From a virus (taxonomy: Duplodnaviria; Heunggongvirae; Uroviricota; Caudoviricetes), in IMG/VR virus record IMGVR_UViG_2718217897_000001, positions 1-45,266 of that record: 45,266 nucleotides of DNA, one strand, 5' to 3'. Numbering within the stretch: position 1 is the stretch's first letter; the number at the start of each line of letters is the position of its first letter. The notes beneath the pieces are model-generated. The model was not told where the DNA came from and made no database searches. It worked only from the letters and a program-made list of their open reading frames with translations. This document shows, one piece after another, positions 4,122 through 44,900 of the stretch. The position numbers were made by a program, and so were the translations under genes.

Positions 4122-4157
4122 TGGTGGAGCTGGCGGGAGTTGAACCCGTGTCTGAAA
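4122..4157 (-). repeat. displaced ssrA 3'-end copy; prophage attachment-site repeat (attR)
   Basis: tggtggagctggcgggagttgaacccgTgtcTgaaa matches the ssrA 3' end at 44865-44900 with 2 mismatches over ~36 nt. Confidence 0.85.
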
Positions 4158-4186
4158 AATATTAACCTGTTGTTTTAATTATATAT

Positions 4187-4966
4187 TTATCTGAACATGG
4201 CGTTTGCGGCGCTTTTGCGTATCTTCTCTAGACCTTTTGTAGTCCATTTCTCTGGTACAGGTGTAAACCGTAGTGCAAAATCTGCCTCCATATTATCACC
4301 ACTGAAACGTGCCACTCCACGTTCCAATTTTGTTTGCCAAGTGACTTTTTTAGTTTTACCCTCTATATCTTGATATTCAATAATTAATTTTGGACCAGTG
4401 AATGATGAAGAACCGACTAATTTAAGTCTATGTGAAAGATATGCTATATTCAATAGAATATCAATTGCCGCGGTTGGTACAAAAATGTTTTTTGACTTCT
4501 TATCTATACTATATGGTAACGAAAAATCAATATCGTAAGGTGTCGATAAAGTATTGTACATATATACTTTTCTTTCTTTTATTATTTTGAACATTCCATA
4601 CTGGGAGTCGGTTGTAAAAGATTTATCTTCTTTTTTGAATTTTTTCGAAAACAACTCTAAATATAGATTTATGTTTTTTTTATAATTAAAATCCCAATGA
4701 TATCTAAGTGAAATTGCCGCCCCCAATCCTATGTTTGAAAATTTTGTTTGTGGAAGCGTAGGGGCTTGTAAGATATCAACATGAAAACCGTTGAAATCGT
4801 TAACATTCATCTTGATATTTAAAGTGTCTATCACTAAATTGGGTTTATAAGAGAGCCTTCTTTGAAATATCGTTAACCATATTGCATATAATGCAGCAAT
4901 TGCTGAAATGAAAGTACCAACTGAAGATATGTAGGTGATTAGTTTGTCGAATGTAATTGTAATCAA
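4187..4966 (-). CDS. hypothetical membrane-anchored protein (cargo between attR and int)
   Basis: 259-aa ORF with a TTG start and a plausible GGGGA Shine-Dalgarno. One N-terminal hydrophobic helix (ISSVGTFISAIAALYAIWLTIF). Strongly AT-rich versus neighbours. No family recognised. Confidence 0.55.
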   Translation of the reverse strand: MITITFDKLITYISSVGTFISAIAALYAIWLTIFQRRLSYKPNLVIDTLNIKMNVNDFNGFHVDILQAPTLPQTKFSNIGLGAAISLRYHWDFNYKKNINLYLELFSKKFKKEDKSFTTDSQYGMFKIIKERKVYMYNTLSTPYDIDFSLPYSIDKKSKNIFVPTAAIDILLNIAYLSHRLKLVGSSSFTGPKLIIEYQDIEGKTKKVTWQTKLERGVARFSGDNMEADFALRFTPVPEKWTTKGLEKIRKSAANAMFR

Positions 4967-5007
4967 CTTTAAATCCCCGATTTTAAAAATGCGGGGATTA
5001 TTAAATA

Positions 5008-6180
5008 TTAATTATGATTATGCAAATGATTTATCGATGTAAAGTTATCATACTCTTTAAGATACGAACCATAGTGCCTGAAAAGCATCTCCGGCCCTTT
5101 ATGCCCCATTTGAGCTGCAAGCCAAAACAGGTTTGCTCCTCGGCTGATATGGCTGGTGGCGAATGTATGCCTGGTTTGATATGGGTTTCTGTAACGAATA
5201 CCTGCTTTTCGCAATGTTGGCACCCATGCTTTTTTCCTAATTGCATCAGCACTTGCCCAAGGCTTATTGGTCTTTGGATCTTCAAAGACAGTAGCATCCT
5301 TCATGAATGTAAATGGCTTCTGATTTATCAGCGCCAACATTGCCTCTTCTGTCAGTTCAACTTTCCGAGTACCTGCTTTTGTCTTTGTCCCTTTGATAAC
5401 ACCGACAACACTTGCGCTCTGGACATGGGCAGTTTTTCCAACAAAGTCGATATCACGCCATCGAAGGGCACATAATTCAGAACTACGCAGGCCTGTATGT
5501 ATAGCGAACCGGAACAGATTTTCCCATTGTTTGTTTCCGGCTGCTGCTAGTAATGCATCAACTTCTGCTGGTGATAGCGGATCAACTACGTAGCTGCTTT
5601 CTGCTTCTGACTTATCACTTTGGTAGCGCGAAGCTGTTACTAACGATACGGGGTTAATTTGAAGTACCCCATCGGTCACGGCTTCATCAAGTGCTGACCG
5701 CAGGAAAGATAACTGGTTGCGAATGGTTTTTAAGGTCGTTTTCTGGCTTTGAATCCACGCTTTCAGGGTTGCTGGTGTTAATTCACTTGCAGGGCAAATG
5801 TGAAGTGAGGCTAACGCACTACGGCATTTTTTATAACCACCGATCGTGGATGGTGAAAGTTTCCTCGTTTCGCAGATTTCAAGGTATTCGTCCAGGTACA
5901 TTTTTACCGTTTTGCCTGCAGCAGCATTACCAAAAATTTTCAAACGAGCAGAACGGGGAAAATATTCCGCATAAATGAATGTTCCCCTTTCGATCTTATT
6001 ATGAATTTCGCCGAGTGTGCGCTCAGCGTATTTAATGTTCTTTGGTGTTACTTCCAGATTGGAAAGAGGCTCACGACATTTAACTCCTTTGTAGGTGAAA
6101 GTTATATTGATCGTTTCGCCCTGGCGGTGTTTCCTGATTGTTACGCCGCGCGGTAGTTTGAGCAGTTTTGTCTGGCCCAT
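5008..6180 (-). CDS. int: phage tyrosine integrase
   Basis: 390 aa. C-terminal catalytic region has R...HxxR...Y-type motifs (YQTRHTFAT, GHKGPEMLFRHYGSY). Adjacent to attR and an excisionase gene. Confidence 0.85.
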   Translation of the reverse strand: MGQTKLLKLPRGVTIRKHRQGETINITFTYKGVKCREPLSNLEVTPKNIKYAERTLGEIHNKIERGTFIYAEYFPRSARLKIFGNAAAGKTVKMYLDEYLEICETRKLSPSTIGGYKKCRSALASLHICPASELTPATLKAWIQSQKTTLKTIRNQLSFLRSALDEAVTDGVLQINPVSLVTASRYQSDKSEAESSYVVDPLSPAEVDALLAAAGNKQWENLFRFAIHTGLRSSELCALRWRDIDFVGKTAHVQSASVVGVIKGTKTKAGTRKVELTEEAMLALINQKPFTFMKDATVFEDPKTNKPWASADAIRKKAWVPTLRKAGIRYRNPYQTRHTFATSHISRGANLFWLAAQMGHKGPEMLFRHYGSYLKEYDNFTSINHLHNHN

Positions 6181-6359
6181 TTTGCAACCTCACTAAGATC
6201 AATCCACCTCTCCTTAACGCCTTCAACCTTTAAAACCTGAACACCTTCACGCCAAACACCGCGCTGTACACGTTTGTTTATTGCTTCAGGAGTTTCGCCA
6301 GTTTCTTTGCAATAAGTTGAGATTGGAACACAATCGAGGTTCAGCATATGTTTCTCCAC
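6141..6359 (-). CDS. xis: excisionase-like DNA-binding protein
   Basis: 72-aa ORF immediately upstream of and overlapping int. Small basic winged-helix-like sequence. Confidence 0.5.
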   Translation of the reverse strand: MEKHMLNLDCVPISTYCKETGETPEAINKRVQRGVWREGVQVLKVEGVKERWIDLSEVAKWARQNCSNYRAA

Positions 6360-6406
6360 TTAGCCCGCTGCACACGGGCAGTAATATCAAATTCCAGTCC
6401 TGATAA

Positions 6407-6622
6407 TTAATTTTGTTCCCTGGTTGCTACCTGTTTTATTGGCCTGATGCTGTCCAGTAGCAGACGGCGACGCATGTTAGGTGCACCCCAACGGTAACCA
6501 GTCTTTTTGTCGTAGGATTCACAACGTCCGGCAACCCAGGACGTTTCAGTGGAATGTAATTTCATCCGCTTTTCACCGTCTCGGGTGATAACAATTCCTG
6601 TATGAGTTTTTATCACGCTCAT
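6407..6622 (-). CDS. hypothetical early protein
   Basis: 71-aa ORF, translationally coupled to the upstream gene (ATGA overlap at 6619-6622). Confidence 0.4.
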   Translation of the reverse strand: MSVIKTHTGIVITRDGEKRMKLHSTETSWVAGRCESYDKKTGYRWGAPNMRRRLLLDSIRPIKQVATREQN

Positions 6623-6981
6623 TTCTTAGTCTCCGGTGCTTTCGGTATTACTGCCCAGTGAGTGATATTGACGTTTTCAAGGTCCCCGACTTGAAATGTC
6701 CACTGCCATTCTCCGGTTTCTTTTTGCCCCCATGTGTACCAGAGAGAACGCCAGCCAATCAGCCAGCCTTCTCCGTTAGCATCAAATAACAGAACACTTT
6801 CATTTGCTGGCGGCAGTTCAGCTGACACTGGTATTACTTTGTTTTCCAGTGCTGCACATTTAGCTTCAAGCGCATCAAATTTACGCACCAGGTATTCAGC
6901 ATCCGTTTCATTCACTTTCAGATCTCGCGGTACACATTTCCCGCGCAGAAACCCTTCCATTTCGAAAACATTCATGCGCAT
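6619..6981 (-). CDS. hypothetical early protein (YfdS-like size and position)
   Basis: 120-aa ORF in the early-left operon. Confidence 0.45.
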   Translation of the reverse strand: MRMNVFEMEGFLRGKCVPRDLKVNETDAEYLVRKFDALEAKCAALENKVIPVSAELPPANESVLLFDANGEGWLIGWRSLWYTWGQKETGEWQWTFQVGDLENVNITHWAVIPKAPETKK

Positions 6982-7535
6982 TTGTGTAACTCCGATAATT
7001 CGTTAAAGCGTTCCATAAACATCCCGTAGGCATGGCCTGGAGCCAGTGGAATCACGTTGAACATCTCTGTTGCCGGGATGCCTTCCAGTACAGGCCAGAA
7101 AGAGCCATCATCAAGCCCGAGATCGCGGCGTTCGGTTGCCAGCATGATGAGATCGGCATATTTCACGGGCGTACTCATAACTGGGGGTAATCCGTATTTC
7201 TCACGGATTACGGAGTCTATTTTTTCTTCCATTTGTTTATAGTCAGGAAGAAGGCGTTTCAGTGGTGTGGGAATGTCCTGGCAATACGCTTCTGTTGCAT
7301 CATGCATTAACGCTTCAAAAGCAAATTCCTGCGGCACCAGCTGGCTGCAAAGAACCGCATGTTGGGCGACGCTGTAGAAGTGCGAAAGATGACCGGCAAA
7401 GCGACAGATATTTGAAAGGGAAACCGCGATATCGTTAATATCGATGTCGTCTTTATTTATCCTGTCATAATAAAAATGCTTCCCGGAAAAAGTTTTAATA
7501 AATGACATTTTGTTCTCCACGTATATGCGCTGCAC
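6972..7535 (-). CDS. HD-domain phosphohydrolase (YfdR-like)
   Basis: H...HD motif spacing (HLSHFYSVAQHAV ... LMHDATEAY). Confidence 0.55.
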   Translation of the reverse strand: MQRIYVENKMSFIKTFSGKHFYYDRINKDDIDINDIAVSLSNICRFAGHLSHFYSVAQHAVLCSQLVPQEFAFEALMHDATEAYCQDIPTPLKRLLPDYKQMEEKIDSVIREKYGLPPVMSTPVKYADLIMLATERRDLGLDDGSFWPVLEGIPATEMFNVIPLAPGHAYGMFMERFNELSELHKCA

Positions 7536-7635
7536 CGCGCTGAATTCTGGTAAAAAGAATCCCTCACCATCCGGCGATTATTGAGTAAATTACGTTTCCA
7601 TAAATGCCCCCGCAGGGGCATTTGCAGTAATGAAA

Positions 7636-8460
7636 TCAGGCGGTGAAAGTACCAATAAAGGTTTCTACTTTGCTGTCCTTGAATTTCTCAACAAGCAGAT
7701 CACGAAATTCGTTAGCCATTTCTTCCTGCACCGCCTCCAGCTGAATAATGCGCAGAACCAGTACCGGACGATCGCCAGTGATAATGCTGAGGCGTAATTT
7801 AAACGGACGTTCTTTCAGACCTTCAAACGGAATGCATTTAAATTCAAATGCCACTGGCATAATGTCTTTGGTCTTCGCTTCGACAGACTCCATCAGGGAG
7901 CGTTTGCCGCTGAAGTCATTATCTTCAAAATCAGCGGTCTGGTTTGCTTCAATCGTGATTTTACGGACCGCCGCAGCCGCTTTTGTTGCCTGAATGGTGT
8001 CACCATTAGCATCAAAGCCCACAAGGTAGTCGGCCCAGTCTTCAATCCATTCTGCCAGTGATTTCTGGGAGTTACGCTCGCCATTAACAGACAACAGAGC
8101 AGAGAACGGTGCTGTCTTTTTCAGTTTGAGAGTGGCGGTGTTATCTGCGTGACCTGGTTCATCAATAGTACCCAGGTTAAGCACACTGACGGCACGCATA
8201 TTATCAGCATCGATAAAGCAGCGGGTGCCTTCATCTGCAAGATCTTTAGAATAACGGGTAAAGTCATCGATGCTGGCAGTGGAAAGCGCACCACGGAAAC
8301 GGAAGCGATTTAAATTAAATTTTTCCAGATCATGAATGCGGAAATTCTCAGGCAATGCCACAGCATCGGCACCAATCTTACTGATAATTTCATTAACACC
8401 CTGAGCAGAAATAAGGGCATGGATTTGATTAATTGCGGTTGCGTCTAAGTTCTGAGACAT
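7636..8460 (-). CDS. DUF2303/YfdQ-like phage protein
   Basis: 274 aa; length and position match YfdQ of the CPS-53 prophage. Family assignment is from memory. Confidence 0.5.
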
Positions 8461-8525
8461 AATAAGTCCTCACTATATAAAGATATTCAGTGATGAGATA
8501 AATAATCAGTTAATTAAGAACGATA

Positions 8526-8888
8526 TTAATGACCTGCTGCGCGGAGTTTTCCGTCAGGTTCACCGGCAAGAGTCAGTAATTGTCCCTGGTCTTCCTGCAG
8601 AATAGTCAGGCGACCACCGCGATTGACATACATCGGCGTTTCGGTGGTGTCTTCTTCGGAAATTTTCCCGCGGTTAGTCGGGCGAACATATGAGAGTTTG
8701 TGTTTGATTTTCACACGGTTCTCATCAAATGGTTCGATTTCCAGGTTGAGTGAGACCTTACCTTTGGTTTTCGTGTTCATCACACCGGAAGCGACTTCAC
8801 TGAGAACTGCGCCGATTTTGGTTTCAAATACGCCGCCGTCCAGCTCCCCGATAAATGCCTGCACATCAGTACTGCGTTCGCTAGCCAT
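8526..8888 (-). CDS. hypothetical early protein (YfdP-like, 120 aa)
   Basis: ATG at 8888 preceded by GAGGAG. The longer track ORF to 9206 runs through a GC-rich non-coding region and is rejected. Confidence 0.5.
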   Translation of the reverse strand: MASERSTDVQAFIGELDGGVFETKIGAVLSEVASGVMNTKTKGKVSLNLEIEPFDENRVKIKHKLSYVRPTNRGKISEEDTTETPMYVNRGGRLTILQEDQGQLLTLAGEPDGKLRAAGH

Positions 8889-8899
8889 TTTGCTGCTCC

Positions 8900-9320
8900 T
8901 CATCATATCGACCCTGCAAGGCCGATTAGTTTCTCCACAAAACAGAGAAGAACACCTGCGGTAGCAGCCGCCCGGATGGATTGGGTTATGAGCCCGTCGT
9001 CCGGTGATGCTCTTCTCTGTTTTGTAAAAAGGACGGTACCAGCCGGAAGCAAGGGTACAAACTGGTACCGCCAGGACTACACACAGCATAAAGTTGTGGT
9101 GCCGGGTGCCTCCCGGTGCCTGGCGAAGGTTGCACACCAGACGGGTGGGTATCCACAGAAGGTCGACTGTCAGCCTCAACCTTAACCCGCGTGCGCTGAG
9201 CCGCATTCACCACAACGCTAAGGATTCTCTTTGGTTGAAAATACTTAGCTGTTATGTGCCTGTCTTTTCACCACTTCAGGCTCGGTGGTATCCTTTTAAG
9301 CCCGTATACATAAAAGGAAA
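8900..9320 (-). other. GC-rich structured non-coding region inside the early-left operon (candidate ncRNA, antitermination or terminator cluster)
   Basis: No credible ORF. Contains an ~18-bp inverted repeat (acaaaacagagaagaaca ... tgctcttctctgttttgt) and further GC-rich palindromic segments. Confidence 0.3.
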
Positions 9321-9325
9321 ATCAA

Positions 9326-9571
9326 ATGACTTTTGATGAAAAAGAACTTGATAATGCAATTAATAAAATCATCGTAACGTCGCTCTTTTCCTGTCTCAGC
9401 GACACTCAGCAGAAACAGTTCTACGAATCGGCTTTCAACATGATCGAGCGTTGTTGTTTCTGCGATGCCGACGAGTTACCTGAAAAAATCAGGAAACAGT
9501 TGGCTGATGCTCTTCGAGTGCGACTTTCTGACCAATTTTCTGAAATGTGCTCTCCGAATTTGGACAAATAG
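9326..9571 (+). CDS. hypothetical small acidic protein
   Basis: 81-aa ORF with a strong AAAGGA Shine-Dalgarno 8 nt upstream. Antisense to the early-left operon. Confidence 0.4.
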   Translation: MTFDEKELDNAINKIIVTSLFSCLSDTQQKQFYESAFNMIERCCFCDADELPEKIRKQLADALRVRLSDQFSEMCSPNLDK

Positions 9572-9764: not shown

Positions 9765-9806
9765 TTCATACACCTGCTTTAACATGAGTGCCTGGTGGCA
9801 CAACAT

Positions 9807-9970: not shown

Positions 9971-10597
9971 TTAGAGTTCGTATTGAACTCCTTTGACTAC
10001 ACCAATGATAAGGCAATTACCATTGATAGGGATGTTGGGATACCGAGGATTTAATGGCACTAAAAACTTTTGAGGGCCATCGATGACTAATTTTTTTACT
10101 GTAGCTTCGTTTGTTCCATCAAGTCGAGCGATGACTATTTTTCCATGACGAGGTTCTGCATCTGGATCTACAATCACTGTTGCGCCTTCTGGTATTGTTG
10201 GGAGGCCATTAGGGTTAGTCATGGAGTCACCTTTAACCTCTAATGCAAATGAGTTATCACCAATCTTTAATGATGTATCTACCCACTTGTCCACTTCACT
10301 AAACACTTCTGCTGCCCTGCACTCAGTAAACTGCCCAGCCTGAACCCACGATATTACAGGAACTCTGCGCATGTTTGTGACGAGTTTGCCTTCAAACTCA
10401 GCACCATAAAGAATGTAATCTATTGACGTATTGAAGAACTTCGCTAATTTCGAAAGTGCCTCCCCACCAGGGGTATTGATGTCTTTCTCCCAGTACCCCA
10501 CAGCAACGTCGCTTACTCCACAAAATTTACCCAATTCTTTCTGGGACGTTCCGGTAACTCTTCTCAGAGCTTTTATACGCTGACCAACCGTTTCCAT
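9971..10597 (-). CDS. cI: CI-like prophage repressor (HTH N-terminus, S24/LexA-type peptidase C-terminus)
   Basis: 208 aa. N-terminal HTH (SQKELGKFCGVSDVAVGYWE) and C-terminal autocleavage-type domain (GDSM ... K). Divergent from a cro-like gene. Confidence 0.85.
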   Translation of the reverse strand: METVGQRIKALRRVTGTSQKELGKFCGVSDVAVGYWEKDINTPGGEALSKLAKFFNTSIDYILYGAEFEGKLVTNMRRVPVISWVQAGQFTECRAAEVFSEVDKWVDTSLKIGDNSFALEVKGDSMTNPNGLPTIPEGATVIVDPDAEPRHGKIVIARLDGTNEATVKKLVIDGPQKFLVPLNPRYPNIPINGNCLIIGVVKGVQYEL

Positions 10598-10694
10598 AGG
10601 AGCACCATTTCTTGAATTGCTAAGTAATCTTAGTTTTTATTGACCAAAGATAGATTTGTAATTAGCATCTAATAAAACTTAGTTTGGAGGGCGT
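10598..10694. promoter_or_regulatory. right operator/promoter region (OR with PRM/PR-like divergent promoters)
   Basis: Divergent intergenic region with CTTAGTT repeats (tcttagttttt, aaacttagtttgg). Confidence 0.55.
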
Positions 10695-11828: not shown

Positions 11829-12770
11829 ATGAGCACTAAATTAACCGGCTATGTATGGGATGGTTGCGCTGCATCAGGCATGAAATTATCCAGCGTGGCA
11901 ATTATGGCCCGCCTGGCTGATTTCAGTAATGACGAAGGTGTGTGCTGGCCATCAATTGAAACTATTGCCCGTCAGATTGGCGCGGGGATGAGTACCGTCA
12001 GGACGGCTATCGCACGGCTGGAAGCAGAAGGCTGGTTAACGCGTAAGGCGCGTCGCCAGGGTAACCGCAATGCGTCGAATGTTTATCAGCTTAACGTTGC
12101 GAAGCTTCAGGCAGCGGCATTTTCTCAACTGTCAGATTCTGACCCGTCAAAATCTGACGCATCAAAATCTGACCCGTCAAAATTTGATGCGTCGAAATCT
12201 GGCAAAAAAGCGGGTTTTCACCCGTCAGAATCTGGCGGGGATCCGTCAGTAAAATCAAAACATGATCCGTCAGATAAAAAACCTTCTCGTCCGGACGCTT
12301 CGCAACCGGACACGCAGACGGATGAACAGGATTTTTTAACTCGCCATCCTGATGCGGTTGTATTCAGCCCTAAAAAGCGCCAGTGGGGAACGCAGGATGA
12401 TTTGACCTGCGCACAGTGGCTCTGGAAAAAAATCATCGCCCTGTACGAGCAAGCCGCCGAATGTGACGGCGAGGTGGTTCGTCCCAAAGAACCGAACTGG
12501 ACAGCCTGGGCAAACGAAATTCGCCTGATGTGTGTGCAGGATGGTCGTACTCACAAACAAATCTGCGAGATGTACAGCCGCGTCAGCCGCGATCCGTTCT
12601 GGTGCCGTAACGTGCTCAGCCCGTCGAAGTTGCGGGAAAAATGGGATGAGCTTTCCCTGCGCTTATCACCGTCCGTCAGCACGTACACCGAAAAACGCGA
12701 AGACCCGTACTTCAAATCCAGTTACGACAACGTGGACTACAGCCAGATCCCGGCAGGATTCAGGGGGTGA
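11829..12770 (+). CDS. replication initiator (lambda O-like; N-terminal winged HTH) with internal origin iterons
   Basis: 313 aa. N-terminal HTH, then a repeat-encoded SDSDPSKSDASKSDPSKFDASKS segment matching the DNA iterons. Confidence 0.65.
   Translation: MSTKLTGYVWDGCAASGMKLSSVAIMARLADFSNDEGVCWPSIETIARQIGAGMSTVRTAIARLEAEGWLTRKARRQGNRNASNVYQLNVAKLQAAAFSQLSDSDPSKSDASKSDPSKFDASKSGKKAGFHPSESGGDPSVKSKHDPSDKKPSRPDASQPDTQTDEQDFLTRHPDAVVFSPKKRQWGTQDDLTCAQWLWKKIIALYEQAAECDGEVVRPKEPNWTAWANEIRLMCVQDGRTHKQICEMYSRVSRDPFWCRNVLSPSKLREKWDELSLRLSPSVSTYTEKREDPYFKSSYDNVDYSQIPAGFRG
12129..12275. repeat. origin iterons (about 7-8 direct repeats of a CCGTCA(A/G)AATCTG-like unit)
   Basis: Tandem direct repeats visible at 12129-12275 inside the initiator gene, as in lambda ori within O. 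Confidence 0.7.
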
Positions 12771-16823: not shown

Positions 16824-17708
16824 TTATATTGGGCGCTTTGAATTCGATTTAAAGCGTCTTCCACTTATTCCAGAAACCCAAATGTCTTCCTCAAGAAAGT
16901 CAAGAAGGGCTTTTATTTCTTTTTTTGATGAAGGCATGACAATTTTCTCAACACCGCCAACTATTATGGTTTGTAAGGGGAAATTAACTTTAGCAGCTTC
17001 GGATTTAAACTTTGACATATTTTGGGGTGTTAGCATCCCAGTCTGATTTATTAGTGTTACTTTATTTCTTATCACTGTATCTGCAACGGATTTTAGATCA
17101 AAACCTTGGGGAGTAGAAAATACACTAAGTTGACTAAATGCATTAAGTTCTTGGTCAGTAGCAGCAGAAAAATAGGACGACATGTCAAAAATGCTTCTTA
17201 GATTAAAGAAACTCTTAAATCGTATTGTATCATTGATAATTATTGCAACTAGTTTATCATCAACATTAAAACCGATGCTATTAGCTTTACTAAAGGTAGT
17301 TTTGCTTGCAAAAAGCTTTCCAAAGAATGATTTTGAGGTATCTAAGATTTGTTTTTTGTTGAAAGTTTGTAGTGCAATAATATTGGGGTTTGCTGGCGCG
17401 TCAACACCAACAAATAATGCTTTAATATAACCAATATCAATTTGGCTAGGATCCCAGATAGGCACGGCGGTAGGCCTATTGACTGCGTCAATCAGGCGTG
17501 CAGAATCAGTAAAGTTTTGTATTTCAAAACACTCACTATGTTTTGGTGTATAACCGGCATAGAATGGTATCATATTGTTATGATGACTTTCAAAATATTG
17601 ACGCTGTTGTTGGAAAATGGCCGTAACAGAAGTACTTGCTGTTGCATCAAGTTCGACTCTAACAATTCTCGTTGCAATTGTATTATCTATTACTGCAAAA
17701 AGTGCCAT
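16824..17708 (-). CDS. hypothetical 294-aa protein, second gene of the opposite-strand cargo operon
   Basis: Starts 5 bp after the stop of the upstream membrane-protein gene, with an AAAGGA Shine-Dalgarno. AT-rich. No family recognised. Confidence 0.6.
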   Translation of the reverse strand: MALFAVIDNTIATRIVRVELDATASTSVTAIFQQQRQYFESHHNNMIPFYAGYTPKHSECFEIQNFTDSARLIDAVNRPTAVPIWDPSQIDIGYIKALFVGVDAPANPNIIALQTFNKKQILDTSKSFFGKLFASKTTFSKANSIGFNVDDKLVAIIINDTIRFKSFFNLRSIFDMSSYFSAATDQELNAFSQLSVFSTPQGFDLKSVADTVIRNKVTLINQTGMLTPQNMSKFKSEAAKVNFPLQTIIVGGVEKIVMPSSKKEIKALLDFLEEDIWVSGISGRRFKSNSKRPI

Positions 17709-17713: not shown

Positions 17714-18235
17714 TTATCCTTTAACATGTAGAAATGTGTAGTCTGTTAATTGAATAACTGTAAATTTGATATCTTTAATATCAGTAATAACTGATTTAGA
17801 AATCAATACAAAACCTACGCCGGTGTCATCTTCAGCTTCGTAAAATTTATAACCGATAAGTGACAATACTGGGTTAAAGTTATAGTTCTCGGAAAAGCTG
17901 ATGTAAAATAACAATGATAAATAAAAGAATAACGCATATGCTTTATTTTCAGCAATAGAATCTGTTCCTAGGAGAGGGAATAAATAGCTTAAGAAATAAT
18001 TAGTTACTTCTTTGTTAGCGGGAGAAACTGAACTAATATTTTTTGTCAGAGGTTCAAGTTGTTTCTCAGCATATTGAATCAGGCCTATTGCTAATAACCA
18101 ACTTGCTATGCCAACGCATAAGCTATATTGCATCAGCCAAACCGTATCTTTTACATATCCAATAAAAAATAGAGTTGCGCAAACAGGTGCAATTGAGCTG
18201 GCTGTTAATAATAAGCGTGCTAATTTGTTCATCAT
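17714..18235 (-). CDS. hypothetical multi-pass membrane protein (3-4 predicted TM helices), first gene of the cargo operon
   Basis: 173 aa. Hydrophobic segments at about residues 8-28, 35-55, 78-92 and 99-115. ATG at 18235 with an AAAGGA Shine-Dalgarno. AT-rich. Confidence 0.6.
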   Translation of the reverse strand: MMNKLARLLLTASSIAPVCATLFFIGYVKDTVWLMQYSLCVGIASWLLAIGLIQYAEKQLEPLTKNISSVSPANKEVTNYFLSYLFPLLGTDSIAENKAYALFFYLSLLFYISFSENYNFNPVLSLIGYKFYEAEDDTGVGFVLISKSVITDIKDIKFTVIQLTDYTFLHVKG

Positions 18236-21126: not shown

Positions 21127-21621
21127 ATGGCTGGAACGGCGGGGCGTTCCGGGTGTCGCCCCAAGCCAACGGCGCGCAAGGCGCTGGCCGGAAACCCCGG
21201 CAAGCGAGCCCTGAACAAAGATGAACCTGTTTTTACGCCCATCAAAGGTGTTGAGCCACCGGAGTGGTTCGCTGAAGAAGAGCTCCCTCTCGCCACGATC
21301 ATGTGGCAACTGACAACCAAAGAACTCTGCGGTCAGGGCCTGCTGTGCGTGACTGACCTCGCAGTGCTTGAGCGGTGGTGCGTGGCCTATGAGTTCTGGC
21401 GACGTGCTGTGAAAAATATTGCCAGACAGGGCAACACCATCACCGGTGCAATGGGCGGCATGGTCAAAAATCCGGAGCTGACCGCCAAAAAAGAACAGGA
21501 GTCCGAGATGAGCAGTACGGGGGCAATGCTCGGACTCGACCCCAGCAGCCGCCAGCGTCTGATTGGCCTGGCGGGGCAGAAGAAAGCCACTAACCCGTTT
21601 CTGAAAATTATCGAATCATGA
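21127..21621 (+). CDS. terminase small subunit
   Basis: ATG at 21127 after AGGAG. Sits between HNH and the large terminase. Confidence 0.65.
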
Positions 21622-23351
21622 GCCGGAAATCTTACCCCAACGTAAATGCTGCAAATCAGTATGCCCGGGATGTCGTGCGCGGAAAGATTGTTGCCTGCCA
21701 GTTTGTGATTCAGGCCTGCCAGCGCCATCTTGATGACCTGATGGCGGAAAAAAGTAAGTCGTTTCGTTACCGCTTCGACAAGGACCTGGCTGAACGGGCC
21801 GCGAAATTTATTCAGCTGTTGCCGCACACCAAGGGTGAGTGGGCATTTAAGAGGATGCCCATCACGCTGGAGCCGTGGCAGCTCTTTGTGATCTGCTGCG
21901 CGTTTGGCTGGGTCAATAAAGGCTCCCGGCTGCGCCGCTTCCGTGAGGTGTATACCGAAATCCCCCGTAAGAACGGCAAATCGGCAATCTCTGCCGGTGT
22001 CGCCCTGTATTGTTTTGCCTGTGATAACGAGTTCGGCGCGGAAGTGTATTCCGGTGCCACGACGGAGAAACAGGCATGGGAAGTCTTTCGTCCGGCAAGA
22101 CTGATGTGTAAACGCACACCCATGCTGATGGAAGCGTTCGGGATTGAGGTTAACGCCTCAAACATGAACCGTCCGGAGGATGGTGCGCGTTTTGAACCGC
22201 TGATCGGTAACCCCGGTGATGGTTCATCACCCCACTGTGCGGTGGTGGATGAATATCACGAGCACGCCACAGATGCGCTTTACACCACGATGCTTACCGG
22301 GATGGGGGCGCGACGTCAGCCACTGATGTGGGCTATCACTACCGCCGGGTACAACATTGAGGGGCCGTGCTACGACAAACGGCGGGAAGTCATCGAGATG
22401 CTCAACGGCTCGGTGCCTAACGATGAACTGTTCGGGATCATCTATACCGTTGATGAAGGTGACGACTGGACCGACCCGCAGGTGCTGGAAAAAGCCAATC
22501 CAAATATTGGCGTGTCGGTTTATCGCGAATTTTTGTTAAGTCAGCAGCAGCGTGCGAAAAATAACGCCCGTCTGGCAAACGTCTTTAAAACAAAACACCT
22601 CAATATCTGGGTGTCGGCGCGTTCGGCGTATTTCAACCTGGTGAGCTGGCAGAGCTGCGAGGATAAATCACTGACCCTTGAGCAGTTCGAGGGGCAGCCG
22701 TGCATTCTGGCCTTTGACCTGGCGCGTAAACTGGATATGAACAGCATGGCGCGACTTTATACCCGCGAGATTGACGGTAAAACGCATTACTACAGTGTGG
22801 CCCCGCGTTTCTGGGTACCGTATGACACGGTGTACAGCGTCGAGAAAAATGAAGATCGACGGACAGCCGAACGCTTTCAGAAATGGGTGGAAATGGGCGT
22901 TCTGACCGTTACCGATGGTGCGGAGGTGGATTATCGCTACATCCTCGAGGAGGCCAAAGCGGCGAACAAAATCAGTCCGGTCAGTGAGTCACCCATCGAC
23001 CCCTTCGGGGCGACCGGGTTGTCACATGACCTTGCTGATGAAGACCTGAACCCCATCACTATCATTCAGAACTACACCAACATGTCCGACCCGATGAAAG
23101 AGCTGGAAGCGGCAATTGAATCGGGGCGCTTTCATCATGATGGCAATCCCATCATGACCTGGTGTATCGGCAACGTGGTCGGCAAAACCATTCCGGGTAA
23201 CGATGATGTGGTGAAGCCCGTCAAAGAGCAGGCGGAAAACAAAATTGACGGTGCAGTTGCGCTGATTATGGCGGTTGGCAGAGCCATGCTGTACGAGAAA
23301 GAAGACACGCTGTCTGACCACATTGAGTCCTATGGGATCCGCTCGCTTTAA
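21618..23351 (+). CDS. terminase large subunit
   Basis: 577 aa. ATPase-like N-terminus and nuclease-like C-terminus. Directly upstream of portal. Confidence 0.85.
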
Positions 23352-28663: not shown

Positions 28664-28831
28664 ATGTTTGTCAAACCTGTTAAAGGGCGGTCAGTTCCTG
28701 ATCCTGCCCGCGGCGACCTTTTGCCCGCCGAAGGGCGAAATGTTGACGAGAACAACTACTGGCTGCGCCGTGAAGCAGCGGGTGATATCCGGCGCGTGAA
28801 TAAAAAGGTGAATACCGATGACGATAAGCTT
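28664..28831 (+). CDS. small protein upstream of the sheath gene (DUF2635-like)
   Basis: 55-aa ORF, below the track cutoff. The family call is from memory. Confidence 0.35.
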
Positions 28832-30314
28832 TAACACCATTCCGTCGAATACGCTGGTTCCGTTGTTTTATGCGGAAATGGATAACCAGGCGGCGAATAC
28901 TGCACAGGACAGCGGAGCATCGCTGCTGATTGGTCATGCCAATAACGGTGCAGAGATTGTTGCCAACAGTCTGGTACTGATGCCGTCGGCAGACTATGCA
29001 CGCCAGATTTGTGGTGCGGGAAGTCAGCTGGCGCGTATGGTCGAGGCTTATCGCCAGACTGACCCGTTTGGCGAGCTGTATGTGATTGCCGTTCCGGAAG
29101 CCACAGGCGCGGCGGCAACGGTTACGCTGACGGTGACCGGGGCGGCAACCGAAACCGGCACGGTGAATGTTTATGTGGGACGTACCCGCGTGCAGGCACC
29201 GGTGACCAATGGCGATAACGTCGCGACGATTGCCGGCAGTATCCAGGATGCCATCAATGCCGTTCCGGCCCTGCCGTTTACGGCCTCATCTTCGGCTGGC
29301 GTGGTCACACTGACCGCGCGTCATAAGGGGCTTTGCGGGAATGAAATTCCTGTCAGCCTCAATTACTACGGCTTCGGTGGGGGAGAAGTGCTGCCTGCGG
29401 GCGTACAGATTGCCGTGGCGGCGGGGACCGCCGGAACGGGGGCTCCTGTTCTCACCGGCGCGGTGGCTGCAATGGCGGATGAGCCGTTTGATTATATCGG
29501 TCTTCCGTTCAACGACACGGCCTCCGTTAACACGCTGGTGACCGAGATGAACGATACCAGCGGTCGCTGGAGCTATGCGCGTCAGCTGTATGGTCATGTG
29601 TATACGGCAAAGATCGGCACGCTGTCAGAACTGGTGACCGCAGGTGACCAGTTTAACCAGCAGCACATTACCCTGGCGGGGTACGAAAAAGAGACCCAGA
29701 CGCCTGCCGACGAGCTGGCGGCAAGCCGTGCCGCCCGCGCAGCGGTGTTTATTCGCAACGATCCGGCACGTCCCACGCAGACCGGTGAGCTGGTGGGTAT
29801 GCTGCCTGCGCCGAAGGGGAAACGGTTCACGATGACCGAACAACAGACTCTGCTGTCTCATGGCGTGGCAACGGCGTATGTCGAAAGCGGGGTGCTGCGC
29901 ATTCAGCGTGATGTCACCACGTACAGGAAAAATGCTTACGGGGTTGCGGATAACAGCTACCTCGACAGCGAGACGCTGCATACCAGTGCGTATGTACTGC
30001 GCAAACTGAAATCCGTCATTACCAGTAAGTACGGGCGTCACAAGCTTGCCAGTGACGGTACCCGCTTTGGTCCCGGTCAGGCGATTGTCACCCCGGCGGT
30101 GATCAAAGGGGAACTGCTGGCAACCTACCGTCAGCTCGAGCGTGCGGGGATCGTGGAAAACTACGAACTGTTCAAGCAGTACCTGGTTGTAGAGCGTGAT
30201 GCCAGCGATCCGAACCGCCTGAACACGCTGTTCCCGCCTGACTATGTTAACCAGTTGCGTGTCTTTGCCGTGGTTAACCAGTTCCGTCTTCAGTATTCAG
30301 AGGAGTCTGCATAA
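28818..30314 (+). CDS. contractile tail sheath protein (Mu L-like)
   Basis: 498 aa, followed by a 118-aa tube gene, as in Mu. Confidence 0.8.
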   Translation: MTISFNTIPSNTLVPLFYAEMDNQAANTAQDSGASLLIGHANNGAEIVANSLVLMPSADYARQICGAGSQLARMVEAYRQTDPFGELYVIAVPEATGAAATVTLTVTGAATETGTVNVYVGRTRVQAPVTNGDNVATIAGSIQDAINAVPALPFTASSSAGVVTLTARHKGLCGNEIPVSLNYYGFGGGEVLPAGVQIAVAAGTAGTGAPVLTGAVAAMADEPFDYIGLPFNDTASVNTLVTEMNDTSGRWSYARQLYGHVYTAKIGTLSELVTAGDQFNQQHITLAGYEKETQTPADELAASRAARAAVFIRNDPARPTQTGELVGMLPAPKGKRFTMTEQQTLLSHGVATAYVESGVLRIQRDVTTYRKNAYGVADNSYLDSETLHTSAYVLRKLKSVITSKYGRHKLASDGTRFGPGQAIVTPAVIKGELLATYRQLERAGIVENYELFKQYLVVERDASDPNRLNTLFPPDYVNQLRVFAVVNQFRLQYSEESA

Positions 30315-38577: not shown

Positions 38578-38578
38578 T

Positions 38579-39019: not shown

Positions 39020-39593
39020 CATCCGGCGCGGTGCTGGTATCTGTTGCCGTCACCGCGTCAATGTAATCCAGCACAGTGTTAAGGCTGGTTGTTTCTGCCT
39101 GCGTCAGTTTACGTCCGGCCTGCAATTTCAGCTGAATCAGACTGATTGAAGCCATTGCAGTATCAATCAGTGACTGGCGCTGTGCTTCTGCTGCATCTAC
39201 TGCGGCGCTATGCTGTGCTTCGGTATCCGTCACCCATTTCTCACCATCCCATTTATCGTATGGCGTTAACGGGGCGATAGTGGTTGTATTATCAGGGTAA
39301 TCACCCGGAACTGTGATTTCTTTTGATTCTCCTGTTTCGGTGCTAAAGACGATTTCACCGCGATGGTCTGGCACATATTCCCATGAGTTAAAATCTACAG
39401 ATCGGCAGATTGCATAACCAGCTTTGTATGTGCCAGGGGCATCTAAACAGGAATATGCAGGGATACCGACACCAACGGCAAGATATTCAGTTGATGTGGA
39501 AATATATTCCCGTGTTTCGCCATCATAGTTATAGACGGTAATATTCCCCGCCTTTGTAGCAATAAACTCGCTATTTAATACAGCGTTATCCAT
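38991..39593 (-). CDS. alternative tail fibre assembly protein (inverted set)
   Basis: 200 aa, C-terminal VIWPELP motif. Confidence 0.7.
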   Translation of the reverse strand: MDNAVLNSEFIATKAGNITVYNYDGETREYISTSTEYLAVGVGIPAYSCLDAPGTYKAGYAICRSVDFNSWEYVPDHRGEIVFSTETGESKEITVPGDYPDNTTTIAPLTPYDKWDGEKWVTDTEAQHSAAVDAAEAQRQSLIDTAMASISLIQLKLQAGRKLTQAETTSLNTVLDYIDAVTATDTSTAPDVIWPELPEA

Positions 39594-40093
39594 TATGCAG
39601 CCCTCACGATATAGTTAAATGCAATATTCCGTGGACGGGTTTCATTTATCCCATATGCTGTTGTTCTCTGATTCCCGACAAAATATCCATTTGGATTAGA
39701 AGATACAGAATAATCATCAAAATCAAGTGGGCTATCAGCACCCGGCGTCAGGCTTGCAATATATCCTCTTCCCATAACTTCTGATGCTGGTATTTCTTTT
39801 GTACGATAATCACTAACTCTGAAGAGCTGCCCTTGGTGGGTGTGTGATTCCACTCCTCCATTCTGAAGACTTAGCAAGGCACGTACAGCATCAATACCAC
39901 GCCCGTCATCCCAGCCACGAATAAACTCACCACGTAAATCAGGCAATTTATTTGTCGGATAAGCCTTTGCCAGTTCCGGGTATTCTTCAGCAGAAAAAGC
40001 GGCACCGTTGCATTTCAGCCAGCCTGTTGGCGGAGTGGCTGAAGGCCACGGAACAGGCACCCCAACCGGTAATGCAGAGCCTTCTCCCAAACC
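39593..40093 (-). CDS. alternative tail fibre C-terminal segment, silent in this orientation
   Basis: ORF runs up to the right crossover site and has no independent start. Contains the receptor-binding-tip-like PVGVPVPWP ... GWLKCNG motif. The NVGLGEGS junction is compatible with fusion after ENLGL of the constant part. Confidence 0.65.
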   Translation of the reverse strand, partial: GLGEGSALPVGVPVPWPSATPPTGWLKCNGAAFSAEEYPELAKAYPTNKLPDLRGEFIRGWDDGRGIDAVRALLSLQNGGVESHTHQGQLFRVSDYRTKEIPASEVMGRGYIASLTPGADSPLDFDDYSVSSNPNGYFVGNQRTTAYGINETRPRNIAFNYIVRAA

Positions 40094-40106
40094 AACGTTT
40101 ATGAAA
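40081..40106. repeat. invertase crossover site, right
   Basis: ttctcccaaacc-aa-cgtttatgaaa, in inverted orientation relative to the left site. Confidence 0.55.
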
Positions 40107-40161
40107 ATGCAGAAATAACGAGCAAATGGCATCATTCCTGCTTTTGTCAGAGGGATCCACT

Positions 40162-40716
40162 ATGCTTATTGGCTATGTACGCGTATCAACAAATGACCAG
40201 AACACCGATCTACAACGTAATGCGTTGAACTGTGCAGGATGTGAGCTGATTTTTGAAGACAAGATAAGCGGTACAAAGTCCGACAGACCAGGACTGAAAA
40301 AGCTGCTCAGGACATTATCGGCAGGTGACACGCTGGTGGTCTGGAAACTGGACCGACTGGGACGCAGTATGCGGCATCTTGTCGTGCTGGTGGAGGAGTT
40401 GCGCGAACGAGGCATCAACTTTCGTAGTCTGACGGATTCAATTGATACCAGTACCCCAATGGGGCGCTTTTTCTTTCATGTGATGGGTGCCCTGGCTGAA
40501 ATGGAGCGTGAACTGATTGTTGAACGAACAAAAGCTGGACTGGAAGCAGCTCGCGCACAGGGACGAATTGGTGGACGTCGCCCCAAACTTACACCAGAAC
40601 AATGGGAGCAGGCCGGACGATTAATTGCATCAGGCGTTCCTCGCCAGAAGGTGGCGATCATCTATGATGTTGGTATATCGACACTGTATAAGAAGTTTCC
40701 GGTCGGAGATAAATGA
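40162..40716 (+). CDS. pin: Pin/Gin/Hin-family serine DNA invertase
   Basis: MLIGYVRVSTNDQ N-terminus with catalytic Ser. 184 aa from the ATG at 40162. C-terminal HTH. Confidence 0.9.
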   Translation: MLIGYVRVSTNDQNTDLQRNALNCAGCELIFEDKISGTKSDRPGLKKLLRTLSAGDTLVVWKLDRLGRSMRHLVVLVEELRERGINFRSLTDSIDTSTPMGRFFFHVMGALAEMERELIVERTKAGLEAARAQGRIGGRRPKLTPEQWEQAGRLIASGVPRQKVAIIYDVGISTLYKKFPVGDK

Positions 40717-40736
40717 AACCGTAGCACGTCGTATGC
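40715..40736. repeat. direct repeat copy 1 flanking the GIY-YIG gene
   Basis: gaaaccgtagcacgtcgtatgc, compared with gaaaaccgtaggcacgtagtatgc at 41738-41761. Confidence 0.5.
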
Positions 40737-40776
40737 AAGAAGATCGTGCTGCGGTTTATGCTTATCACTTAAAGAC

Positions 40777-41646
<870 letters not shown>

Positions 41647-41737
41647 CTAAGCCTTTGAATTTATATAGTACAAAAAAGATACTTTTCCTCATAATGTGAA
41701 TTAATTTTATGTTTCGTTTGATGATTGGACCGGTCTC

Positions 41738-41761
41738 GAAAACCGTAGGCACGTAGTATGC
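41738..41761. repeat. direct repeat copy 2 flanking the GIY-YIG gene
   Basis: See copy 1; about 21 of 24 positions shared. Confidence 0.5.
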
Positions 41762-41953
41762 GTTAATTTATGAGCAAACTACTTGTCTGCTGTTTTTCTG
41801 TCATTAGTCGTATATAGAATGATTCTCTATGCCTAACAAAGCATCACTAGTGCTAGATTACGTTGTAGTCACTGTTTAAATATCCAGACAAAACATTTCC
41901 TTCTGGGTTGAATGAGTGATAGAGTTTCACCCATTAGACCCCTTGGAGGAATT

Positions 41954-43387
41954 ATGTCTGAATTTGAAGTGTTGGCACAGCATCTGCTGAAGGAAGCCGA
42001 GGCGGAAGAAAAGCTGCGACAGGAAAATGATAAAAAGCTTATCGAGAAAGTGCTGGAAATCTATGATCAGAAGTATGTGGCTGAATTACTGAGAAAAGTC
42101 GGAAAAAATGAGTGGAGCCGTGAAACCATTAACCGCTGGATTAATGGCAAGTGTTTACCAAAATCGTTGACGTCAGTAGAAGAGTCTCTTCTGCGTAAGA
42201 TGCTACCAGAACCACCTGCAAACCATCCGGAATATGCTTTCCGCTTCATTGACTTATTTGCTGGAATTGGAGGGATACGAAAAGGTTTTGAGGCTATTGG
42301 AGGCCAGTGTGTTTTTACCAGTGAATGGAATAAAGATGCTGTGCGTACATACAAGGCCAACTGGTTTAACGATGAACAGGTGCATAAATTCAATCTCGAT
42401 ATTCGGGAAGTCACGTTGAGTGATAAAACCGATGTATTGGAAACGGATGCTTATGCATATATTGATGAGCATGTGCCGGATCATGATGTGCTTCTTGCGG
42501 GGTTCCCGTGCCAGCCATTTAGTCTTGCTGGTGTTAGTAAGAAAAACTCACTTGGCCGTGCGCATGGTTTTGAATGTGAAGCACAAGGAACACTTTTTTT
42601 TGACGTGGCACGTATTATACGAGCAAAAAAACCGGCAATTTTTGTGCTGGAAAATGTCAAAAATCTGAAGAGCCATGATAAGGGTAAAACTTTCAAAGTC
42701 ATTATGGAGACCCTTGACGAGCTGGGCTACGAAGTTGCCGATGCTGCAGAAATGGGAAAAAACGATCCAAAGATTATCGATGGGAAGCATTTTTTGCCTC
42801 AGCATCGTGAACGCATTGTTCTGGTCGGATTTAGACGAGATCTGAATATTCACAAGGGGTTTACCTTGCGTGATATCAGTCGTTTTTATCCGGAACACCG
42901 CCCATCATTTGGTGAATTGCTGGAGCCTGTAGTCGACAGTAAATATATACTTACGCCAAAACTATGGGAGTACCTTTATAACTACGCCAAAAAGCATGCA
43001 GCCAAGGGGAATGGTTTTGGCTTTGGGTTGGTCAATCCTGAGAATAAGGAAAGCATTGCACGCACACTTTCTGCCAGATATCACAAAGACGGATCAGAAA
43101 TTCTTATTGATCGTGGTTGGGATATGGCAACGGGAGAGGCTGACTTTATGAATGAGAGTAATCAGGCTCGTCGACCACGCAGGCTGACTCCCCGAGAGTG
43201 CGCACGCCTTATGGGATTTGAAAAACCTGGAGGGAAACCATTCCGTATTCCGGTTTCAGATACTCAGTCATATCGGCAGTTCGGTAACTCAGTTGTGGTG
43301 CCAGTATTTGAAGCTGTTGCCAGACTTCTGGAACCCTATATCCTCAAAGCTGTTTCTGCTGATGCTGGTAAGACTGGGCAGCCTTGA
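41954..43387 (+). CDS. DNA cytosine-5 methyltransferase, Dcm/M.EcoRII-like (CCWGG specificity inferred)
   Basis: Motif [18 protein letters not shown], motif [13 protein letters not shown], motif [11 protein letters not shown], motif [12 protein letters not shown]. Near-collinear with E. coli Dcm as recalled. ATG at 41954 after GGAGGA; the track ORF starts at 41912. Confidence 0.85.
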
Positions 43388-43421
43388 GAACACCTCCCGG
43401 CCTTTTAAGCCGGGAGTCAGC

Positions 43422-44636
43422 CTATGATAGTTCAGCGTAAAGCTCTATCAGCTCAGTAATGAATGCTCCGAGCGTTATTAATTCTTCTCTAACTGCTTCT
43501 GGGTATTTTTTATGTAAAGTTGATGGTACAACGAGTCTGACACCCGCATCTTTCATTTCTCGGTATTGTGCTGAAGAAACACCTTCTTGCAGTGTAAATA
43601 AATGTACCTGATGGATTTTATCTGCTTCATTCAGTATCTGACGCCAGCGATCTTTGCAGGTGGTCTTTACTGCCAGCATACGTAAGTTTTCTACAGGAAA
43701 TTCAACGTTATGATATGCCTCTGCTGAAGGAAACAGGAAATCTGGTTTTTTATTACCTTCAGTAACTGCCTGAGTGGAGAAATGCCGTAGTCCGTGCTCG
43801 ATAAAAAGCTTCTCTAGGTGAAGTTCAAGTGATTTGCCTGCCCTTGATTTACGTCGATTACTGACAGAGTTGGCTAATGCAATAAACTCATCTACAGAAT
43901 CGAATCCTTTCTTAATAATATCAAGAACATGTAATTCCTCGACGAGTAGAAAAATATCATACTCGACACGCCGACGGTCAATCAGTTGCTCATCTGGATC
44001 CTTGGAGTTTTTAGCATAATGGCCAGCAGCATATTGAATAATTTCGTTTCCAGAAGGAAAACGCTTCTTCCAGTCTTCAGGAATAACATATTTATGATTT
44101 ACTGGAGTTTGCTGAAGAGATAATCCGCCCAAAATTTGTCCGGCAGGGCCGGAAATTAGGGTTCCAGGTATGATTTCGCCAATAGCAGACTCGATGATAT
44201 CCTCTTCATCGGGATTGACGCAGACCCATATATCTACCTCGGAACAGTCAGTGTTCTGTTCGTTTAACCTGAAAGCAAGAATTGTGAGAGCTCCTGTATT
44301 TTCAGGGTTCTGTAATGGACTTCCTCTCCCCCAGCGCGTAATTCTTTTTTCGTTTCGGGTCTTACCAAAATAACGGTTGTTGTAATAAATTGCGCGTGCT
44401 TGGGTATCTGGGCAATCATGGGATGATACATGCGCAGTAAGGAAGACTGAAGGGTTCAGTTCGCGAGTATGATTGATAGATGGAAAAAGCTTTTCAACGA
44501 TATTTGAGGGGATATAAAGTCCGACCTGATGGCCACCTGTTGCGCCAGTGTCGTTTGCAGAAAGGCGTTTGATGTAGATAAAGTAATTCCCGCTTGCGAT
44601 ATCAAGCAGCCAGTTATGAAAAACCGACATATACAT
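43422..44636 (-). CDS. EcoRII-like type IIE restriction endonuclease
   Basis: 404 aa, convergent with a Dcm-like methyltransferase, which is the known EcoRII R-M arrangement. Sequence resembles EcoRII as recalled. Confidence 0.7.
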   Translation of the reverse strand: MYMSVFHNWLLDIASGNYFIYIKRLSANDTGATGGHQVGLYIPSNIVEKLFPSINHTRELNPSVFLTAHVSSHDCPDTQARAIYYNNRYFGKTRNEKRITRWGRGSPLQNPENTGALTILAFRLNEQNTDCSEVDIWVCVNPDEEDIIESAIGEIIPGTLISGPAGQILGGLSLQQTPVNHKYVIPEDWKKRFPSGNEIIQYAAGHYAKNSKDPDEQLIDRRRVEYDIFLLVEELHVLDIIKKGFDSVDEFIALANSVSNRRKSRAGKSLELHLEKLFIEHGLRHFSTQAVTEGNKKPDFLFPSAEAYHNVEFPVENLRMLAVKTTCKDRWRQILNEADKIHQVHLFTLQEGVSSAQYREMKDAGVRLVVPSTLHKKYPEAVREELITLGAFITELIELYAELS

Positions 44637-44710
44637 CCCTTTGTTAGCATACAGTCAGGGTTAACATTTTTCCATAGTTATAGATAAGCGGCTAGGAACT
44701 TAAGGGAAAA

Positions 44711-44740
44711 ACAAAAAGCCCGCATAAGCGGGCTTTTGTG
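44711..44740 (-). terminator. bidirectional rho-independent terminator between ssrA and the prophage
   Basis: agcccgc ataa gcgggct stem-loop with T-runs on both sides. Confidence 0.6.
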
Positions 44741-44864
44741 TCACTCGGGAGCCGCGGCTCCTTTGCGTATCCTTTTTTGTCTCCTCACCGTCTGGTCAGT
44801 GTCCTGCTGAGACTGCTAACTTCCTGTTTTTGTTGGTGTTGTCCTTACACCGTCCAATCATGAT

Positions 44865-44900
44865 TGGTGGAGCTGGCGGGAGTTGAACCCGCGTCCGAAA
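44865..44900 (-). repeat. attachment-site repeat within the ssrA 3' end (attL)
   Basis: Matches 4122-4157. Confidence 0.85.

Follow-up and report, generated by a model that had tools for sequence, protein, structure and literature searches.

Two independent integrative elements very probably sit in tandem at the 3' end of the Escherichia coli transfer-messenger RNA (tmRNA) gene, ssrA, in the DNA analysed here, the 45,266-nucleotide (nt) virus record IMGVR_UViG_2718217897_000001 of IMG/VR, which we refer to at its full length as the window. In the direction of ssrA, the order of features is the intact gene, a 40.7-kb prophage, a 36-nt leftover of the ssrA 3' end (here called ssrA'), and the remnant of an island that carries an integrase of the IntA/P4 family (Table 1). 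A reading made from the sequence alone (the sequence-only reading) had proposed two elements with different integrases in tandem at ssrA, and this proposal is supported by the phage attachment site (attP) that we rebuilt from the window, by strains that carry one of the elements singly, and by the published behavior of the Citrobacter rodentium phage PhiNP. The analysis shows which of the two ssrA copies is functional, and it fixes the borders of the prophage to the base (4158-44864 plus one copy of the core).

The displaced ssrA end and the rebuilt attachment site

ARAGORN finds a single tmRNA gene in the window, on the minus strand, with the tag peptide ANDENYALAA. The last 36 nt of this gene, which read TGGTGGAGCTGGCGGGAGTTGAACCCGCGTCCGAAA on the plus strand (the reverse complement of the 3' end), recur as a direct repeat at a start-to-start distance of 40,743 bp, with two mismatches (T instead of C at positions 4149 and 4153). 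When three or fewer mismatches are allowed, the window contains exactly these two matches to TGGTGGAGCTGGCGGGAGTTGAACCCGCGTCCGAAA, and 100 dinucleotide-preserving shuffles contain none; the claims of the sequence-only reading that a copy of about 36 nt with two mismatches lies at 4122-4157, and that the intact gene lies 40.7 kb from it at 44865-45227, are thus both confirmed. A third repeat of this type would either bound the island on its far side or divide the prophage in two. At the same threshold none turned up in the window or in strains TB06052 and REL606, nor did the locus of strain GPEC1209 (locus extract L003), which spans a P4-like satellite, show a further one. The ssrA' copy serves both elements, as the attachment (att) junction at the far end of the prophage and as the island's junction on the side of ssrA.

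The two copies share an identical block of 27 bp, and the published 25-bp attP/attB core of PhiNP, TGGTGGAGCTGGCGGGAGTTGAACC, falls inside it. PhiNP excises spontaneously and forms myovirus particles (PMC3072379, PMC6456863), and it integrates at this 25-bp ssrA 3' end in both C. rodentium and E. coli K-12, rebuilding ssrA as it does so (PMC6456863, PMC3072379). In every strain compared, ssrA' has the same two substitutions and the same inner phage sequence; the two mismatched bases always go with the phage arm, and strains that have only the island carry wild-type ssrA. The variant bases therefore belong to the attP of the phage, which places the crossover 3' of 4149 and 4153, as the model of phage integration requires.

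We rebuilt attP by joining window positions 44300-44864 to positions 4122-6400. The product is collinear with the genome of the free Escherichia phage LLS: a 179-bp block that spans the joint is 92% identical, and the genes for integrase (int) and excisionase (xis) then follow at the expected spacing (76% identical). The LLS record itself annotates a 'tmRNA pseudogene' and an 'attP' exactly at the position that matches the rebuilt joint.

Integration would proceed as follows. The attP of the incoming phage would hold a copy of the ssrA 3' end, with the two phage-specific substitutions on its 5' side and a native-like flank of about 150 bp that includes a terminator. The integrase would cross over inside the 27-bp block (as shown for the 25-bp core of PhiNP and presumed here), and ssrA would be rebuilt with wild-type sequence and a terminator supplied by the phage. 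The old 3' end, now fused to the variant bases of the phage, would be displaced by 40.7 kb and would still abut its former downstream neighbor, in this case the terminator and integrase of the island. Conversely, excision by integrase and excisionase between 4122-4148 and 44865-44891 would restore the exact ssrA-island junction of E. coli B, as it stands at 2676888-2677450 in REL606, and would yield a circle in which a single core copy links 44864 to 4158.

Each element has an integrase of its own. That of the prophage, which lies together with the excisionase at the prophage end far from ssrA, is 92% identical to the integrase of PhiNP and 86% identical to that of LLS. The island integrase has an Arm-DNA-bind_3 (DUF4102) domain (E = 5.6e-23), a Phage_int_M domain (3.4e-24) and a catalytic domain (8.1e-20; all Pfam); its ATG, at 3955 on the minus strand, is 166 bp from ssrA', and the protein is 48% identical over 401 amino acids (aa) to IntA of K-12. 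The sequence-only reading had described an IntA-like integrase about 165 bp from the ssrA copy, in a layout like that of CP4-57, and was right on both counts. It had also given the prophage its own, unrelated integrase at the far end; ownership and position hold, and 'unrelated' does not, the two integrases being distant relatives within the tyrosine recombinases (25% identical over 133 aa) with different arm-binding domains.

The 18-nt pattern GCGGC(G/T)C(C/T)TTTGCGTATC has only two matches in the window, one in each phage arm and in the same orientation, and motifs similar to GCGGCGCTTTTGCGTATC lie at an equal distance from the core in PhiNP and in the Klebsiella record Kp4866-6. This pair may be a putative arm-type site of the integrase. 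The pattern was drawn up after both sites had been seen; the chance expectation of zero is therefore not an independent test.

Table 1. Features of the window at and around the ssrA locus (a point in the strand column marks a feature to which no strand applies)
Feature	Position	Strand	Evidence or remark
ParB/RepB-like protein	1-897	-	runs to the window edge; also directly at ssrA in REL606
Large serine recombinase, 518 aa	887-2443	-	same gene directly at ssrA in REL606
IntA/P4-family tyrosine integrase, 409 aa	2726-3955	-	Pfam
Terminator hairpin in island arm, 37-76 nt past the end of ssrA'	4046-4085	-	scan match 4072-4058
Distal partial ssrA 3' copy (ssrA'), 36 nt	4122-4157	-	repeat search; recurs beside three left neighbors
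27-bp block identical in both copies, probable crossover zone of the phage integrase	4122-4148	.	alignment; PhiNP core
Low-GC open reading frame (ORF), 259 aa, between attP and int (cargo)	4187-4966	-	phrog_7259
Candidate arm-type motif GCGGCGCTTTTGCGTATC, P side	4206-4223	+	putative
Prophage tyrosine integrase	5008-6180	-	Pfam; N-terminus of Arm-DNA-bind_2/DUF3596 type
Excisionase, 68 aa	6141-6347	-	phrog_2917, E = 8e-44
SfV/e14-like prophage body	6348-40716	.	DNA identity, Pfam and PHROG matches; Prokaryotic Genome Annotation Pipeline (PGAP) annotation of the GPEC1209 copy
cI-like repressor (early region)	9971-10597	-	
O-like replication gene	11829-12770		iterons at 12117-12239
Kiwa defense pair, KwaB (294 aa)	16824-17708	-	PADLOC, 2e-150
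Kiwa defense pair, KwaA (173 aa)	17714-18235	-	PADLOC, 2e-83
Terminase	21618-23351		head module, with portal, protease and capsid
Tail sheath	28818-30314		tail module, with tube, tape measure, baseplate and invertible tail fibers
Pin-type invertase	40126-40716		Pfam match
Cargo slot adjoining attP, between Pin invertase and attP	40777-44636	.	
PD-T4-3 GIY-YIG protein	40777-41601	-	PADLOC, 3e-140
C5 cytosine methyltransferase	41912-43387	+	
EcoRII-type restriction endonuclease	43422-44636	-	
Phage P' arm adjoining ssrA	44713-44864	-	92% identical to the LLS arm and to the sequence natively downstream of ssrA in E. coli
Terminator hairpin in phage P' arm (replacement ssrA terminator)	44714-44737	-	
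Candidate arm-type motif GCGGCTCCTTTGCGTATC, P' side	44754-44771	+	putative; post hoc pattern
Proximal att copy (attL-type junction, in which the body of ssrA meets the P' arm of the prophage)	44865-44900	-	ARAGORN; repeat search
Intact ssrA	44865-45227	-	ARAGORN; repeat search

Site states in other genomes and the order of insertion

We counted the states of the ssrA site in 5426 complete E. coli genomes. The island was sought directly at intact ssrA with a synthetic junction (window 3300-4121 joined to 44865-45266), counted where at least 80% of it was covered in one piece. This state was found in 956 genomes, and strains such as REL606, BL21(DE3) and E. coli C match the junction at 100% identity over 1224 nt. 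The site is empty in 709 genomes, in which a native flank of about 650 bp lies between ssrA and glaH. The phage end (ssrA', the adjoining ORF and int) is present in 49 genomes, and its tandem with this island in 32 (among them enteroaggregative E. coli 042 and isolates from dog, cat, chicken and water). Strain 21515 has the phage alone, with ssrA' followed by the native flank; the comparison with single-element strains that the sequence-only reading had suggested thus finds both kinds. In GPEC1209 nearly the same phage lies beside a different, P4-like satellite (with primase, Icd-like, Psu and Ogr/Delta genes and a DUF262/HEPN hotspot) whose integrase is 50% identical to that of the island, and TB06052 has the same island and phage integrase end, with a different, degraded prophage body. 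The phage end, with the same two mismatches, ORF and integrase, therefore stands beside three different left neighbors.

Some matches that end at window position 44892 were considered as another tandem layer, and rejected; they represent an SfV-like prophage at thrW. In E. coli Z1323PEC0011 (NZ_CP148277.1; locus extract L002, 12150-12830), the thrW/CP4-6 locus contains the remnant of an SfV-like prophage that shares the tail-fiber/pin/PD-T4-3/EcoRII end and the ssrA-type arm. Of the ssrA core it retains only 23 nt; beyond these lie about 400 nt of different sequence, a 3' fragment of thrW and a CP4-6-like integrase stub. This half attP looks like the fossil of an exchange of the int/att module, and the locus is another tandem, at thrW. 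The Klebsiella 'phage' Kp4866-6 (OK490421, unverified) has an integrase 88% identical to that of the window's prophage, and the outer side of its ssrA core (locus extract L006, about 2190-2400, minus strand) is an IntA-family terminator and spacer. The record thus includes host or island flank, and a tandem of phage and IntA-family island seems to occur in Klebsiella pneumoniae as well.

The genes of the island, as seen in REL606 (locus extract L010, 15809-20656), are the integrase, a large serine recombinase and two ParB/RepB-like genes; in relatives of strain 042 the island is also found with an AAA ATPase and an adenine methylase. Genes of the CP4-57/P4 type (an alpA-type regulator, a primase, a toxin-antitoxin pair) are not among its visible cargo, and the island shares an integrase family with CP4-57 and is not CP4-57. 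It is cut by insertion sequence (IS) IS1 in REL606 and by IS3 in TB06052. Together with the lack of a distal repeat in these relatives (see below), the interruptions suggest that the island is probably no longer mobile, and it is to all appearances a decayed remnant.

Several points weigh against parts of this interpretation. The sequence does not reveal which element came first, since both orders would lead to a product that is the same base for base. The far end of the island lies outside the window, and no distal ssrA repeat of the island was found at three or fewer mismatches in REL606 or TB06052; that the island itself originally integrated at ssrA is something we infer only from family resemblance. 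Intactness of the prophage is judged only from its gene content and from its 99.5% identity to another copy, and the 40.7-kb element is presumed to be still able to excise. Finally, the arrangement could have arrived ready-made from another strain, imported as one block through homologous recombination or by transduction, with the conserved smpB-ssrA and gab/glaH flanks as the regions of exchange. The occurrence of the tandem in 32 genomes of varied origin is in line with such an import, and TB06052, with its same left end and different prophage body, shows recombination within the region. An import would concern only how this strain acquired the locus, and two site-specific insertions would still be needed somewhere in its history; we regard it as possible, if somewhat doubtful, and the architecture is unchanged by it.

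We favor the island as the first arrival and the phage as the second, as the probable order. The sequence-only reading had gone further and held that the arrangement implies entry of the phage into an ssrA that was already occupied; that order is the one we prefer, and the implication fails, because the reverse order would leave an identical sequence. In the reverse order the phage would have entered an empty ssrA and the IntA-family island would later have entered the distal ssrA'. The algebra of the att sites predicts the same final sequence for this course of events, the distal copy would in that state keep a perfect 27-nt core and the native downstream flank, a crossover of the CP4-57 family requires no more than about the last 15 nt of ssrA, all of which the distal copy retains, and the phage-only state exists, in strain 21515. 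We nevertheless consider the reverse order quite unlikely, because genomes with the island at intact ssrA outnumber those with the phage end by about 20 to 1 (956 versus 49), because near-identical copies of the phage adjoin three different neighbors (for which one recently spreading phage that enters differently occupied sites is the more economical account), because the island looks decayed (IS-cut and without a distal repeat in its relatives), and because PhiNP enters the ssrA of K-12 when it already holds CP4-57.

It is very improbable that the whole is one composite element bounded by ssrA and an unseen distal repeat, with the copy at 4122 as an internal relic. An array of three direct repeats might in principle allow both parts to excise together; against this, each part occurs alone and has its own integrase beside its own junction, the phage occurs with other partners too, and the relatives of the island lack a distal repeat. 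It is hardly credible that the repeat arose by chance or through misassembly, given that no matches are expected by chance and that the same junction occurs in many independent complete genomes, and we found no point in favor of it.

Terminators, prophage body and cargo

Hairpins with GCCCGC/GCGGGC stems lie past both ssrA copies; the terminator scans and the shared stems agree with the sequence-only reading, which had noted similar terminator hairpins after each copy. The island hairpin aligns as a homolog of the hairpin in the ssrA-intA spacer of K-12 and of the hairpin of the P4-like satellite in GPEC1209, indicating that elements of the IntA family bring a common replacement terminator. 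The phage arm (44713-44864) is about 92% identical over about 150 bp to the native ssrA flank of strains with an empty site, and it also matches the native flank kept beyond CP4-57 in K-12, with the terminator included in both cases (locus extracts L008, 8860-9009, and L011, 270-440). The attP of the phage thus carries a host-like cassette of about 185 bp, which consists of the ssrA end and the native terminator region. The hairpins differ in origin, the distal one coming from the island and the one next to ssrA being a copy of the native ssrA terminator region, and each element is predicted to supply its own terminator to ssrA. In lysogens that have the phage only, the direct repeats on either side of the prophage would thus measure about 185 bp instead of 36 bp.

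This homology of 150 bp between the phage arm and the native flank is the only mildly unusual point of the locus. One speculative explanation, which we hold to be unlikely, is that the 'native' ssrA flank is itself the fossil junction of an ancient phage of the PhiNP type. If that were true, all E. coli lineages would owe the terminator and the 3' context of their tmRNA precursor to a mobile element, and elements would compete through interchangeable ssrA 3'-end cassettes. The ordinary alternative is that the phage captured host flank through imprecise excision.

The evidence supports reading the 40.7 kb between the ssrA copies as one complete-looking SfV/e14-like myovirus prophage of the PhiNP/LLS integration type. 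It is read as a single prophage because no internal ssrA-type site was found at three or fewer mismatches and because the EcoRII block travels with the tail-fiber end elsewhere. A head of the HK97 type, a contractile Mu-like tail, fibers invertible by Pin and a lambdoid early region are all present, as are cro/cI, a Q antiterminator and lysis genes. The twin prophage of GPEC1209 is about 99.5% identical over most of its length, and its PGAP annotation confirms the gene content. Six tandem 15-bp units similar to TCAAAATCTGACCCG lie within the O-like initiator gene; origin iterons inside the O gene are the usual lambdoid layout.

The prophage is a vehicle for three defense systems, namely Kiwa, PD-T4-3 and an EcoRII-type restriction-modification pair. 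The Kiwa pair occupies a low-GC slot (33%) between the Q antiterminator and the holin, where the GPEC1209 prophage has a KAP-family NTPase, indicating that the slot is an exchangeable cargo position. The PD-T4-3/EcoRII block is common to related prophage ends in at least 22 genomes. It was considered as a third element and rejected: there is no att copy between it and the tail genes, and in other genomes it stays with the pin/tail-fiber end, even at another locus.

Comparison with known systems

A close counterpart of the prophage's integration region is that of PhiNP (OR565852), a myovirus with a 92% identical integrase and an adjoining xis, whose integration likewise rebuilds ssrA and duplicates a core, the 25-bp attP core of PhiNP lying within the 27-bp block of the window. 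PhiNP differs in having an AAA ATPase beside int, in the place of the phrog_7259 ORF of the window, and in that its identity to ssrA stops after 25 nt, as against 27 plus 9 in the window. Its body and cargo differ from those of the window's prophage as well, and the comparison made here is of the int region only. K-12 carries CP4-57 at ssrA; the tandem of PhiNP and CP4-57 that integration into this strain creates is not discussed in PMC6456863 or PMC3072379.

Phage LLS (PQ299149) has the same order of features, that is, a P' arm with terminator, the ssrA 3' pseudogene, an ORF of about 0.8 kb, int and xis, with a P' arm 92% identical and an integrase 86% identical to those of the window. Unlike the window's prophage, LLS has the two substitutions of its ssrA copy at other positions, it lacks the EcoRII module at that end, and the ORF beside its attP (gene 31) is only 26% identical to that at 4187-4966.

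On the side of the island, CP4-57 and its K-12 IntA share the domain architecture of the integrase (at 48% identity) and the homologous spacer hairpin, and intA, like the island integrase gene, lies directly downstream of ssrA and is transcribed away from it (with a spacer of 203 bp, compared with 166 bp for the island). The island differs from CP4-57 in its serine recombinase and ParB-like cargo and in abutting a partial ssrA copy rather than the intact gene. CP4-57 in K-12 keeps its distal repeat (psaA), whereas the relatives of the island have none.

The early and structural genes of the prophage are 95-98% identical in DNA sequence over long stretches to those of SfV, SfII, SfIV and vB_EcoM-689R6, and the PGAP annotation of the GPEC1209 twin uses gene names of the e14 type (ymfK/T/L/Q/R, pinE and tfaE). 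Phages of the SfV type integrate at thrW, and e14 integrates at icd. The phage of the window differs from both in having an int/att module of the ssrA type, half of whose attP is apparently kept as a fossil by one relative at thrW.

In tandem arrays at tRNA and tmRNA genes, elements that share one bacterial attachment site (attB) stack, and each leaves a partial copy of the gene; tandem occupancy of ssrA is therefore an arrangement of a kind that is already known. The tmRNA gene is a recognized hotspot, and a 2003 paper by Williams, 'Traffic at the tmRNA gene', is cited in PMC3603311. Bobay et al. (2013, PMC3603311) single out the tRNA-Thr and tmRNA genes as the two sites in E. coli where prophages and other elements are extremely diverse, and for Nakamura et al. 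(2021, PMC8112680) tandem integration through shared att sites is the traditional view. The window's locus does not differ in kind from such arrays and is a further example of them, with its own pair of partners. The same arrangement occurs in no fewer than 32 complete genomes, one of them that of the reference enteroaggregative strain 042. The finding is correct and can be resolved cleanly, but it is not new in kind, and the locus opens no new question; its value is as a well-documented case of competition for one site, at the integration hotspot that is busiest in E. coli, with all of the intermediate states represented in public genomes.

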